Shown here: positions 23,073 through 27,328 of the stretch, in pieces
Layout of the letters: each line of letters begins with the position of its first letter
Numbering within the stretch: position 1 is the stretch's first letter
The notes under the pieces: model-generated
Seen by the model: only the letters and a program-made list of their open reading frames with translations
The model's database searches: none
Told to the model about the DNA's origin: nothing
Source of the DNA: a virus
Taxonomy: Duplodnaviria > Heunggongvirae > Uroviricota > Caudoviricetes
DNA: 46,604 nucleotides
Direction: 5' to 3' (one strand)
IMG/VR virus record: IMGVR_UViG_2565956727_000002
Translations under genes and position numbers: made by a program

Positions 23073-23284
23073 CAGAACCTCGCCAGCCGGTACCCGGGAT
23101 GCCCCCGTCGTCGTGTAATCAGAGCCGCAAGGCGGCGCTCCCACTCCTGCCGTCCCTGCCGGATCTCAGATAAGTTTTCCATGGTCATCTGCTGACCATT
23201 AAAGGTGACGGATTTTCCGTCCAGCACCGCCATTTCAGCTTCCGTATAACGCTGAATCATGGCTTCGATATCATTCTGGTTCAT
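23072..23284 (-). CDS. W: head-tail joining / head completion protein (W-like)
   Basis: About 70 aa between TerL and portal; C-terminus ...RRRGHPGYRLARF resembles lambda W; ATG overlaps the TerL stop. Confidence 0.7.
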   Translation of the reverse strand: MNQNDIEAMIQRYTEAEMAVLDGKSVTFNGQQMTMENLSEIRQGRQEWERRLAALITRRRGHPGYRLARF

Positions 23285-25380
23285 AACCATCCTCCGGAAG
23301 TCAGCCAGGGGTTAACATCGTCAGTTACTGTTTTCTTCCGTTTTTGTTTTTTAACAGGCGTGGATACCGGTTCCGGTGAGGATGACGGTTCGGTACTGTC
23401 CTGGACACACTCCAGCCAGGTCTCCCGGCTCGCCCACTCCGGTGCATCCGGCCAGCGGATCTTTTCGTATCCATGCAGAATGACCAGAGCCTCGGCATAC
23501 ACCATCAGGTCAAAAGCTTCGTTGGCACCGCGACCCGGCTTACTCCATTTCCCGTCACTGCTCCGCTCTTCATACGTCAGTTCGTCGTAAAACCAGCTCC
23601 CCAGCCAGTCAGGGAAATGCACATAGCCTGGACCTGGCGAGTCACGCCATAACGCGTTATTCACCCGGTCTTTCAGGGCATCCGTCTGAAGAAGCCAGAG
23701 CGGCACATCACCTGCGGCCTGCGCCCGGCGGCCCGTTCGTCCGGTGTTATCAGGGAATGTACGGCTGATCAGTTTTGCGCGCCGGATGCTGTCACCCTTA
23801 AACAGGTAAATACGTTTACCAAGGCCATCACGACGGCAACGACGCCAGAATTTATAGGCATTATCAGTGACCCCGTCTTCACCGCCGGAGTCCACCGCCA
23901 TAGCCATCAGTCGCATTTGTTGAGAAGGATCGGAGGCCAGCGGCCAGCTTTTATGAAAAACATCCGTCAGCAGGACATCCCAGTCTTCCGGATAGCTGGC
24001 CGGATCAATTCGCTGGCTCTCCCCGTCGCAGTCACTGCGCAATGACTGCGTGATGTTGTAACGATCAATAATCCAGCGTTCGCCACGACTGCCATAGCCC
24101 GTTACCTGAACCACAAAACGGCGATGACGTCCCGCCTGCACATCCACTGTCGCCACAAGGAAATTAACGCCATCCGGCACACTGCGGGAAGGAACTAGCT
24201 CTGCCCGCTGCTCAAGCAGTTCACTTTTTCGTTGCTCCATGCTGGCACGAGGAAGATAAGGCAATCCCCAGTCGGTGTTGATAACCGCCCTGAGTGTTTC
24301 TTCGCTTCCTGTCGCTTCATACTCCTGTTCTGCAGTCAGTAATTTGTAAACCAGTTGCGCCCAGGTCTGATACGCAGCAGCTGGCCCTTCCATCCAGAAA
24401 CTGGCGATACGGGAGCGGCGCGGTTCACCGGAAACGTTGCCGTTACGATCAATGACCTGACCTTCACGCAACCAGACTCCTGCACTATTGAGCTCACGCT
24501 TTTTCTCCGCAGTGATAATGCCGCTGCAGTGCGGGCAAAGTAGATACGCCGCCTCACTGGCTTTAAAGGGATCCGGTTCATTACGGTAGCCGGTCATGGC
24601 ATCCATGGCTGGCTGAAAATATTCACCGCAGTGCGGACATGACCAGTACCAGCGGCGGCGGTCACCACGATTGTAAAGGGAAAGAATACCAGTCGTCGGT
24701 GGCGCTTCATGAGGCGACTTACGTCGCCATTTGCTGTCGCAGATGTCACGTCCCGGCGAGCTCTCCACCAGAGTCATCCCGGCGGACATAAATGTGGTGG
24801 TACGTTTTGAGGCCAGGGAGAAACCATCACCCTCGCTGTCGATATTCTCCGGAAAACGGTCGTAATCGGTTAAGGCGACAAACCGGTAATCCGACGACGA
24901 CATAATGTTGACCGAGGGCCAACCAATTTTAAGGAACGAGCCATCCCTGAACGTCTTATCATGGACATTATTGTCGTTACGACGTGGACTCATTCTTTTC
25001 TTTACCGCCGCACTGCTTCTGAACGTTCTGTCGAGGCGCTTTTTAGAATGCTCGCGGGCCTTATCTTCGGTCATCTGCACAACGAGCATGTCCGAAGGAT
25101 CGCAAACGATGGTATAGACAATCCATCCATCGATCAGACCAATGGTCTTCCCTGTTCGCGCAGGACCAACAAAAATCACCGCATCGTATTCACGCGATGC
25201 CAGGCAGTTCATGGGCTCAATGATGTAGGGTGTCAGTTCAGGATCCCATGGCACCGAGTTACCAGCCCCCTTGGGAACACGCATGAATTTTTTAACAGCC
25301 TCCGAAATCGGCATGCGACGTGGTGGGGAAAATCCTGCCGATATGTCCCTTCCCAAATTTCGGGCTGATGAAAAACCCAT
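23281..25380 (-). CDS. A: terminase large subunit (lambda A-like)
   Basis: 699 aa; ATPase region (…VGPARTGKT…) and CPHCGE zinc-ribbon-like motif as in lambda gpA. Confidence 0.95.
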   Translation of the reverse strand: MGFSSARNLGRDISAGFSPPRRMPISEAVKKFMRVPKGAGNSVPWDPELTPYIIEPMNCLASREYDAVIFVGPARTGKTIGLIDGWIVYTIVCDPSDMLVVQMTEDKAREHSKKRLDRTFRSSAAVKKRMSPRRNDNNVHDKTFRDGSFLKIGWPSVNIMSSSDYRFVALTDYDRFPENIDSEGDGFSLASKRTTTFMSAGMTLVESSPGRDICDSKWRRKSPHEAPPTTGILSLYNRGDRRRWYWSCPHCGEYFQPAMDAMTGYRNEPDPFKASEAAYLLCPHCSGIITAEKKRELNSAGVWLREGQVIDRNGNVSGEPRRSRIASFWMEGPAAAYQTWAQLVYKLLTAEQEYEATGSEETLRAVINTDWGLPYLPRASMEQRKSELLEQRAELVPSRSVPDGVNFLVATVDVQAGRHRRFVVQVTGYGSRGERWIIDRYNITQSLRSDCDGESQRIDPASYPEDWDVLLTDVFHKSWPLASDPSQQMRLMAMAVDSGGEDGVTDNAYKFWRRCRRDGLGKRIYLFKGDSIRRAKLISRTFPDNTGRTGRRAQAAGDVPLWLLQTDALKDRVNNALWRDSPGPGYVHFPDWLGSWFYDELTYEERSSDGKWSKPGRGANEAFDLMVYAEALVILHGYEKIRWPDAPEWASRETWLECVQDSTEPSSSPEPVSTPVKKQKRKKTVTDDVNPWLTSGGWL

Positions 25381-25388
25381 TATTCCTC

Positions 25389-25916
25389 CTAGAGACTCTC
25401 TCCTTCCTCATCAGGAATTAATTCAGCAGCACAAGCCTCGTAGGATTTTTCCTGAAGAGTGTATCGCAGGTCATCAATGGCCTGCTGTACAACGCCGACG
25501 GCCTGAGGAGTCAGGGCGCAATCGCGTTCAAGAACATCCGGAATTGTCTCCAGAACCTGGACGACAGCCTTTCTCATGGACGAATAGACGATGACTACTT
25601 CATCAACGGGGATGAGTTTTCGCTGCTCCTTTTCCAGCTTGATCCTTTCATTTTCAGATTGGTACCAGTCCTTTCTCTCTTTCGGCTCCATACGGGATGG
25701 ATCATGAACAGAGTCTGCTGCCTCATGCTTCACACTAAACAGGGCTGGCCCGACATGCTGCAGGGCGTAAACGGGGTTCCCCCTGATAGTCGCAGCCACA
25801 GGAGTGTTGGCCGCGAGGAGCCGTTTTTTTACTGTGTCCCGGTGAAGCCCAAAGGCCTCAGCGATTTTAAAAACACTCCAGTAATAAGCATCACCGATCC
25901 CGCTCACATTTGACAT
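25389..25916 (-). CDS. nu1: terminase small subunit (Nu1-like)
   Basis: N-terminal winged-HTH-like region directly upstream of TerL; start at ATG 25916 (GGAG about 8 nt upstream); ORF track extends to 25946. Confidence 0.8.
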   Translation of the reverse strand: MSNVSGIGDAYYWSVFKIAEAFGLHRDTVKKRLLAANTPVAATIRGNPVYALQHVGPALFSVKHEAADSVHDPSRMEPKERKDWYQSENERIKLEKEQRKLIPVDEVVIVYSSMRKAVVQVLETIPDVLERDCALTPQAVGVVQQAIDDLRYTLQEKSYEACAAELIPDEEGESL

Positions 25917-26059
25917 AAGCAACTCCATCTGGCAGGTGAAAATCATGTTTATTTATATATTTCAATTAATTGCAAACTGGTCTAATGACAGGGAGAAAAA
26001 AATATTGTACAGGTGAAAAGAGAAATAACTTTTAATTATCAATAAATTACCAAACATGC

Positions 26060-26170
26060 TGCCGCCGCCATGGAAATGCAAAAACTAGCCTTTTTCCGCG
26101 ACGCTCCCGCCCCGTGGCAGGGGCCCCCACCGGGAGGACCCGACAGCCTGACAGCCTGACAGCCGTGATG
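26060..26170. promoter_or_regulatory. candidate cos / terminase recognition region
   Basis: Short GC-rich island directly upstream of the small terminase gene with a hairpin (gcccc-gtggca-ggggc) and three tandem gacagcc(t/g) octamers at 26142..26165. Confidence 0.3.
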
Positions 26171-26300
26171 AGCATCTGATACAGCGCTTTACATAATGGC
26201 ATAGGAATAATTCAGAAGGACATCACAGCATGCCCACACAAATTAGTGTGAGTGTCCTGTTTCTTCCTACGCACAGGACTGACGAGCATGAGGGGAAAAT

Positions 26301-26468
26301 ATGCGAACCATAAATGCCTCATCTTCAGCAATGCAACCGGCATCCGAACAGGACGATATTGTAAATTCACCTAATTACGAGGACATTGCAGTAGTTGAAT
26401 TGCAGCTCTGTATTAGCCTGACAGTGACAGAATGCGATATTGACTCTGTCACAGGTGAAATAGTTTGA
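26301..26468 (+). CDS. hypothetical small protein (about 55 aa), not in the ORF track
   Basis: ATG preceded by GAGGGG; MRTINASSSAMQPASEQDD...; contains an 8-bp inverted repeat near its 3' end. Confidence 0.3.
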   Translation: MRTINASSSAMQPASEQDDIVNSPNYEDIAVVELQLCISLTVTECDIDSVTGEIV

Positions 26469-26488
26469 ATGATTAGCAGTTATGGTGC

Positions 26489-26695
26489 TCAGTCAACCAC
26501 CAGGGAATAATCCTTCGAATTCTTATCGTGCTTCACCAACGCTGCCTCAATTGCCCTGAATGCTTCCAGAGACACCTGATGTTCTATACATGCAATTACA
26601 ACATCCGGGTAACTCATAGAAATGGTGCTATTAAGCATATTTTTTACACGAATCAGATCCAACGAGAGTTCATCAGCAGATTGTTCTTTATTCAT
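26489..26695 (-). CDS. hypothetical small protein (68 aa)
   Basis: ORF of 68 aa in the moron region between the cos region and gnsB; no recognisable motif. Confidence 0.4.
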
Positions 26696-26980: not shown

Positions 26981-27328
26981 ATGGAAGGTTTACCAATGGC
27001 TCAGGTTGCCATTTTTAAAGAAATATTCGATCAAGTGCGTAAAGATTTAAACTGTGAATTATTTTATTCTGAGCTAAAACGTCACAATGTCTCACTTTAT
27101 ATTTACTATTTAGCCACAGATAATATTCACATTGTGTTAGAAAACGACAACATAGTGTTAGTAAAAGGACTCAAAAAGGTTGTAAATGTTAAATTCTCCA
27201 GAAACAAACATCTTATAGAGACCTCCTATAATAAGTTGAAATCAAAAGAAATCACATTTCAACAATACAGGGAAAATCTTGCTAAAGCAGGAGTTTTCCG
27301 ATGGGTTACAAATATCCAGGAACACTAA
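26981..27328 (+). CDS. DUF1398-like phage protein (YdfO/YbcV-like)
   Basis: About 110 aa; C-terminal ...[19 protein letters not shown]... recalls the DUF1398 family found in this position of lambdoid prophages. Confidence 0.45.

Follow-up and report, generated by a model that had tools for sequence, protein, structure and literature searches.

A probable lambda-like cohesive-end site upstream of a DUF1441-type small terminase gene in a common Escherichia coli prophage

The window, that is, the whole 46.6-kb stretch of viral DNA analysed here, encodes its terminase on the minus strand, and the region under study is to be read as the reverse complement. The small terminase gene, terS (25389..25916, minus strand), codes for a 175-aa protein of the DUF1441/PHROG 141 family. 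In Pfam the protein matched DUF1441 (E = 4.6e-44) and not Phage_Nu1, and among the PHROG families it matched phrog_141, 'terminase small subunit' (E = 1.8e-64), with PHROG 57 as a weak match. BLASTP comparison with lambda Nu1 gave nothing significant (E = 4.6), the helix-turn-helix-like N-terminus of TerS produced a non-significant local match to the helix-turn-helix region of Nu1 (E = 5.7), and no significant homology was found between the TerS sequence and solved structures. Judged by its sequence, the window TerS is not a Nu1-family protein. The large terminase gene, terL (23281..25380, minus strand), encodes a 699-aa large terminase of the lambda gpA type (ATPase and endonuclease), with full-length matches to both GpA_ATPase (E = 4.2e-80) and GpA_nuclease (E = 8.2e-86) of Pfam; TerL is predicted to be the enzyme that nicks cosN. 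Downstream on the same strand, and close to terS and terL, are a gene for a head-tail adaptor and a portal gene of the lambda family.

Upstream of terS lies a GC-rich island, with a GC content of 0.75 at 26090-26149, 0.62-0.68 in the neighbouring 60-nt windows and 0.23-0.37 at 25910-26089. An earlier note on this DNA had pointed out the island and proposed a candidate cos upstream of terS; the first observation was reproduced, and the proposal is supported by a lambda-like cosQ/cosN alignment together with the gene context. From 26164 downwards the minus strand carries, in this order, GGCTGTCA GGCTGTCA GGCTGTC, GGGTCCT, CCCGGTGGGGGCCCCTGCCACG, GGGCGGGAGCGT and CGCGGAAAAAGGCTAGTTTTTG, followed by an AT-rich 150 bp and then the start of terS. 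The segment 26141..26079 of this strand, which reads ...GGCTGTC-GGGTCCT-CCCGGTGGGGGCCCCTGCCACG/GGGCGGGAGCGT/CGCGGAAAAAGGCTAG, aligns almost base for base with the cosQ, spacer, cosN and I2 of lambda. The nick positions, the polarity of the overhang and the roles of the subsites given below are all assigned by homology with lambda and are to be read as predictions.

By homology with lambda bp 48473-48479, GGGTCCT (26135..26141, minus strand) corresponds to cosQ, the packaging-termination signal, a role known from lambda genetics (PMC4669245). It is separated from the first predicted nick by a 22-nt spacer, CCCGGTGGGGGCCCCTGCCACG (26113..26134, minus strand), to which the variable 5′ arm and the loop of the 'hairpin' discussed below belong. 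The putative cohesive end, GGGCGGGAGCGT (26101..26112, minus strand), would be a 12-nt 5′ overhang, the top-strand (minus-strand) nick being predicted between 26113 and 26112 and the bottom-strand (plus-strand) nick between 26101 and 26100. CG flanks both nick positions (CACG/GGGC and GCGT/CGCG), and CG pairs flanking the nicks are conserved in lambda-like cos sites (PMC4669245). Between cosN and cosB there is a conserved I2-like segment, CGCGGAAAAAGGCTAGTTTTTG (26079..26100, minus strand), which is common to phages of at least four cosB/TerS types and aligns with CGCGGGTTTTCGCTATTTATG of lambda; I2 is a conserved segment of lambda-like phages with a part in termination (PMC4669245). A single match to GGGTCCT-N18-24-CGGGGCGG is present in the window, against 0/100 shuffles with a match. 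A literature search for the exact 12-mer GGGCGGGAGCGT retrieved an unrelated match only.

For comparison, the joined ends of the lambda reference (NC_001416) were set beside the window. At the joined ends lambda reads ACGGGTCCTTTCCGGTGATCCGACAGGTTACG/GGGCGGCGACCT/CGCGGGTTTTCGC and the window TCGGGTCCTCCCGGTGGGGGCCCCTGCCACG/GGGCGGGAGCGT/CGCGGAAAAAGGC. The earlier note had seen no likeness to lambda cosN, yet cosQ is identical (7/7), the bases ...ACG/GGGCGG are the same in both, and the lambda end GGGCGGCGACCT and the window end GGGCGGGAGCGT agree at 8 of 12 positions, including all six of the left half. The four differences fall at bp 7, 8, 9 and 11. According to the Feiss laboratory, the bp 7-12 half of the cosN end is the part that varies naturally in lambda-like phages, the end of Gifsy-1, for example, differing from that of lambda at bp 8, 9 and 11 (PMC4669245). 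The subsites follow one another in the same order and at the same spacing in lambda and in the window, with a cosQ-to-nick spacer of 23 nt in the former and 22 nt in the latter, where CGCGG comes after the second nick. Both have an IHF site between cosN and terS, and terS starts at bp 191 from the left end in lambda and at bp 197 in the window, with alternative ATGs at 25928 and 25946. The likeness extends to the gpA-type large terminase and the lambda-family portal. The small terminases, by contrast, belong to different families, Nu1 in lambda and DUF1441/PHROG 141 in the window, and the window lacks any lambda R sequence: its candidate R elements (TTTTCACCTG twice, in direct orientation) are unlike R3>, R2<, R1> of lambda. 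The two also differ in what precedes cosQ, namely, the palindrome TGATAATCATTATCA in lambda and an octamer array in the window. This palindrome or a near copy of it is found directly before cosQ in lambda (right end, ~48445-48465), mEp043 and VT1-Sakai, and the cdtI-type right arm retains just part of it (GGTGATAATCACTCTCA). The palindrome resembles the Fur-box consensus.

The sample of relatives was built from loci whose TerS shares at least 99% identity with the window TerS, 80 of them from IMG/VR and one a GTDB contig. Upstream sequence was available in 80 of these 81 loci, all 80 of them with the cosQ-cosN core, which together with the window makes 81 cos sites. Both cosQ and the whole cosQ-cosN-I2 core are kept in 81/81 sites, the latter also across at least four TerS/cosB types, while the cosQ-to-nick spacing is 22 nt in 78 and the end sequence is GGGCGGGAGCGT in 80. 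Many E. coli chromosomes contain the exact 441-bp region (100% identity), and the cos region finds a match, at least in part, in 2,114 of 5,426 complete E. coli genomes; the sole feature annotated under the match, among the RefSeq records listed, is the neighbouring gene for a 'DUF1441 family protein'. A contig search added two loci only, one of them from a mislabelled MAG. The latter, JAGZPX010000007.1 (22.9 kb, labelled as a Veillonella parvula MAG), has a TerS 100% identical to that of the window and the same cos, and is almost certainly a mis-binned Escherichia prophage contig.

A BLAST search of phage records revealed that the records of cdtI (AB285204/NC_009514) and Tritos (OV696610) both begin at the base homologous to window position 26112. 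Over the 12 kb of the left arm, from terS to the tail genes, the window is 98.6-98.7% identical to these two phages; their cosN, I2, cosB and terS have essentially the same sequence as in the window (98-99% DNA identity), and the window TerS is 99.4% identical to the TerS of either. Tritos, a plaque-forming isolate that makes virions, is prophage 3 of E. coli LF82 (PMC9928086). It shares the right arm of the window, with all three octamers present: the linear record ends with ...CTGCCACG, or, in a longer form, ...GGCTGTCAGGCTGTCAGGCTGTCGGGTCCTCCCGGTGGGGGCCCCTGCCACG, and over the 56 bases between the start of the first octamer and the nick this right end equals the window, with a single difference further upstream. 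cdtI, on the other hand, has another right arm (...ATAATCACTCTCATTTTGGC-GGGTCCT) without octamers and differs from the window otherwise by a few point substitutions; it also has no hairpin, because its spacer carries the TGGCC allele.

Homology may itself have determined where the cdtI and Tritos records were opened. In the LLS record, the homologous 12 bases are annotated as a 5′ cohesive end, which its authors state to be inferred and not mapped (PMC12315714). The record of Hafnia phage yong2 (MZ516527) opens at bp 13, just past the 12-nt end. More generally, records of related phages open inconsistently around the same cos: among mEp460_4F5 (LR595868), yong2 and mEp460 (JQ182728), one starts 5 nt ahead of the nick with 3 nt of the end missing, another at bp 13, and a third over 100 bp beyond cos. 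The start of a record is therefore no reliable guide to the physical ends.

Cos sites of the Gifsy-type, mEp043, LLS and mEp460 phages share the cosQ-cosN-I2 core of the window, and their ends vary just in bp 7-12, that of LLS being GGGCGGCGCGCT. These phages also have an IHF-like TTGAT core in cosB and a TerS of the same family as that of the window, at 35-42% identity. Their cosB and candidate R motifs, however, differ from those of the window (TCATCACCAC in mEp460/569R4, TCAYCATCAT in mEp043), which implies different packaging specificities, and the R3>, R2<, R1> arrangement is clearer in them than it is in the window. The ~63-bp cosQ-cosN-I2 core (26079-26141) is the only sequence common to otherwise unrelated right arms and cosB/terS modules, and it looks like a recombination joint for module exchange among lambdoid phages. 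A peculiar arrangement was observed in Ayreon (MF807953, ~1100-1260), where the right arm is normal up to ...CTGCCACGGGG, ~170 bp replace the rest of cosN, and the sequence then resumes with GGAAAAAGGCTAG. The ~170-bp stretch, which includes a sequence that translates into a peptide resembling a TerS C-terminus (ETLPDILERDCGLQPAAVSRVQ) and is annotated as 'putative late gene regulator', looks like an artefact of gap filling or assembly at the cohesive ends rather than biology.

The AT-rich sequence between cosN and terS (25929-26100) is our candidate for the real cosB. Four elements can be distinguished in it. A GC-rich block, CATGGCGGCGGCAGCATG (26055..26072, minus strand; bp 41-58 from the left end), lies at the position of R3, which in lambda occupies bp 50-65 (PMC9026076), and may be a TerS site. 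The block is unchanged in 71/81 relatives and matches in position GCTGTCAGCAGCAGGTG of Providencia phage PSTCR8lys, the TerS of which has a DNA-binding domain closely similar to that of the window TerS. The IHF consensus TATCAATAAATTA (26037..26049, plus strand; bp 64-76 from the left end) would be the equivalent of I1; it is the sole exact match to WATCAANNNNTTR in the 46.6-kb window and is invariant in all 81 sites, and a TTGAT core is found at the position of the IHF site in most other cosB types. Next, TTTTCACCTGTACA (26006..26019, minus strand), located at the position of TTGAGGTGACAG in PSTCR8lys, is a putative TerS site in the R2 position. It has natural variants, CAGCTG in 11 and TACCTG in 9 of the 81 sites, and is therefore not tightly constrained. 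Finally, TTTTCACCTGCCAG (25929..25942, minus strand), just upstream of the terS ribosome-binding site, may be an R1-like site; it is unchanged in 76/81, and its PSTCR8lys homologue, TTTTCACCTGACAG, lies at the same bp 171-184. The last two elements are linked by the 10-mer TTTTCACCTG, of which the window contains exactly two copies (26010-26019 and 25933-25942) where 0.14 are expected.

Further support for these candidates comes from PSTCR8lys and a Trabulsiella prophage, which have the N-terminal HTH region of TerS in common with the window (TerS ~55% identical). Repeated elements are found in them at the same distances from the end, namely, at bp ~45-60, 96-107, 120-132 and 171-184. These positions are suggestive: they favour the candidate sites without defining the recognition sequence. 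When the window cosB was searched for a lambda-style arrangement of R3, inverted R2 and R1, there was no convincing inverted copy besides the two direct TTTTCACCTG and the GC-rich block, and a repeat search for the same sites yielded AT-rich, low-information pairs only. A description of the cosB sequences recognised by DUF1441-type TerS was not found in the literature searched. The cosB part of our model is consequently a proposal built on position, the IHF site and the two 10-mers. In the Trabulsiella guamensis contig (~640-810), cosB contains an apparent tandem duplication of a whole unit (CATGGGACACC..-AACTTATTGA..-TTTGAGGTGGG), so that two R3-I1-R2-like modules would stand ahead of terS.

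The tandem octamers (GGCTGTCA GGCTGTCA GGCTGTC; 26142..26164, minus strand) abut cosQ on the side away from terS. The three direct octamers described in the earlier note were recovered by Tandem Repeats Finder at 26142-26164 (period 8, 2.9 copies, 100% match). No other perfect array of at least 2.8 copies with a period of 6-12 exists in the 46.6-kb window, and 2/200 dinucleotide shuffles contain one; the repeat is therefore real and non-random. Among the 81 cos sites with the same TerS, 10, the window being one of them, have three copies, 53 have two and 18 have none. Two-copy sites are usually imperfect (GGTTGTCAGGCTGTC or AGCTGTCAGGCTGAC), and the 18 sites without octamers have quite different right arms, such as that of the cdtI type (...ATAATCACTCTCATTTTGGC-GGGTCCT). 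The octamer-bearing arm recurs beside the mEp460, 569R4 and PhiR40_1 types of TerS/cosB, with TerS ~41% identical. In this arm, small conserved ORFs lie between the lysis genes and cos, in the window at 26301-26468 (plus strand), 26489-26695 (minus strand) and 26981-27328 (plus strand); they correspond to phrog_4035 (55 aa, on the strand opposite to the late genes), phrog_657 and a DUF1398 protein, the latter two named YbcW and YbcV, respectively, in the Tritos record. The phrog_4035/phrog_657/DUF1398 module accompanies the octamer-type right arm.

Direct repeats in this position had been taken in the earlier note for what is expected of TerS-binding elements. The octamers are actually located beyond cosQ and not between cosN and terS, where cosB lies; they are missing from 18/81 sites with the same TerS, including that of cdtI, and are present beside a TerS of ~41% identity that goes with a different cosB. 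Taking the 81 sites and the other types together, the presence of octamers is neither required by the window TerS nor does it track TerS specificity. A coding role was considered and rejected: steps of 8 nt in copy number would shift the frame of any ORF, and the 51-aa ORF that runs across the repeat (26047-26202) has no match among PHROG families. The simplest account of the octamers is replication slippage from two to three copies within the last 30-52 bp of the packaged chromosome.

Other readings of the repeats and of the site as a whole have to be weighed against this account. The octamers could be an accessory element next to cosQ, which binds TerS or enhances termination and thereby tunes the efficiency or processivity of packaging; we regard this as improbable. 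The array does directly abut the cosQ GGGTCCT, and TGTCAGGCTG is constant among octamer-bearing arms, but the copy number varies between two and three, the units are imperfect in most carriers, and in 18/81 sites (22%) with TerS at least 99% identical, the sequenced cdtI among them, there is no array at all. The octamer also holds CTGTCAGG, which recurs in the R-like elements CTGTCAGGTGAAAA, GCTGTCACCTC and GCTGTCAGCAG of PSTCR8lys, a phage whose TerS has a recognition helix (NRGTVKKRL) nearly identical to that of the window TerS (HRDTVKKRL), and CTGTCA is present once in the window cosB (25986-25991). This shared 8-mer, however, was found post hoc, with a rough chance expectation of ~0.05-0.6 depending on the comparison, and TerS types whose candidate R motifs are quite different (TCATCACCAC, TTCGACATC) occur next to the octamer arm as well. 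Such an accessory element would be comparable to R4 of lambda, an extra Nu1-binding sequence that has been reported to the left of cosN and is non-essential. It is likewise unlikely that the octamers are contacted by the DUF1441 TerS or by the translocating terminase, with the 0-, 2- and 3-copy alleles as functional variants instead of products of neutral slippage; if this unlikely proposal were true, octamer alleles would tune the termination or processivity of packaging.

The hairpin reported in the earlier note is in part real: the inverted repeat gcccc (26109-26113)-gtggca-ggggc (26120-26124) exists, forming a potential G+C stem of 5 bp with a 6-nt loop, but a functional structure is not borne out. 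We consider it extremely unlikely that the repeat acts as a hairpin or cruciform, for instance, as a structure recognised by terminase or as a transcription terminator for the late lysis region. The predicted fold of the 86-nt region is no more stable than that of shuffled sequence (MFE of -11.1 kcal/mol; mean of the shuffles, -12.8; z = +0.80; 157/200 dinucleotide shuffles at least as stable), and an Rfam scan of 25700-26600 at E ≤ 1 returned no match. The search of 26000-26300 for promoters and terminators found neither, the sole promoter-like match of the region being at 26469-26496, and no T-run follows the stem. By analogy with lambda, late transcription would also have to pass through cos on its way to terS, which speaks against a terminator. 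The inverted repeat spans the top-strand nick; its 3′ arm, GGGGC, consists of the last base before the nick and bp 1-4 of the cohesive end and is fixed because it is part of cosN. The 5′ arm, GCCCC, is retained in just 18/81 relatives, the alleles of the others including TGGCC, GTCCC and GGCCC, and no compensatory change accompanies them. The hairpin arises by coincidence, the invariant CG/GGGC pairing with one allele of a variable spacer. A more general doubt concerns the activity of the site, which might be a relic, either an uncut cos-like sequence in a defective prophage or one in a phage that packages by the headful (pac) mechanism. Many lambdoid prophages of E. coli are defective, and the window itself holds no proof of activity. 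This interpretation is nevertheless very unlikely: terS, terL and the portal gene are all of full length, as are their domain matches, the left arm shares 98.6-98.7% identity with cdtI and Tritos, and the window does not differ from Tritos, which produces virions and plaques, either in the cos core or in the right-end sequence that runs from the first octamer up to the nick.

Taken together, these results indicate that the region is very probably a lambda-like cohesive-end site of a prophage, with the minus-strand order cosQ-cosN-I2-cosB-terS and with the octamers as a non-essential slippage repeat outside cosQ. Several features of a lambda-like cos in the usage of the Feiss laboratory (PMC4669245) are found in the window: likeness to cosN, a 7-bp cosQ at a lambda-like spacing, CG at the nicks, I2, and IHF in cosB. 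For the three related R sequences of a complex cosB, with R2 inverted relative to R3 and R1, the window offers as candidates the two direct TTTTCACCTG copies and the block at the R3 position. By analogy with lambda, packaging would be initiated by assembly of the DUF1441-type TerS on the AT-rich cosB (~25929-26072), aided by IHF bending at 26037-26049. TerS bound to cosB would position the gpA-type TerL for two nicks 12 bp apart in cosN, and nicking would give a left genome end with the 5′ overhang GGGCGGGAGCGT (26112..26101). The GC-rich island would correspond to the conserved cosQ-cosN-I2 core, and the octamers to an 8-bp slippage expansion that adjoins cosQ on its outer side, at the very right end of the packaged chromosome, and is presumably not needed for packaging.

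The site belongs to an already known and very common kind of cos, as in cdtI and Tritos, and reveals no new mechanism. Its value lies in annotation, as it provides the probable genome ends for a prophage type whose cos region has at least a partial match in ~2,100 of 5,426 complete E. coli genomes, and in the conserved cosQ-cosN-I2 core as a junction at which different right arms and cosB/terS modules are joined.
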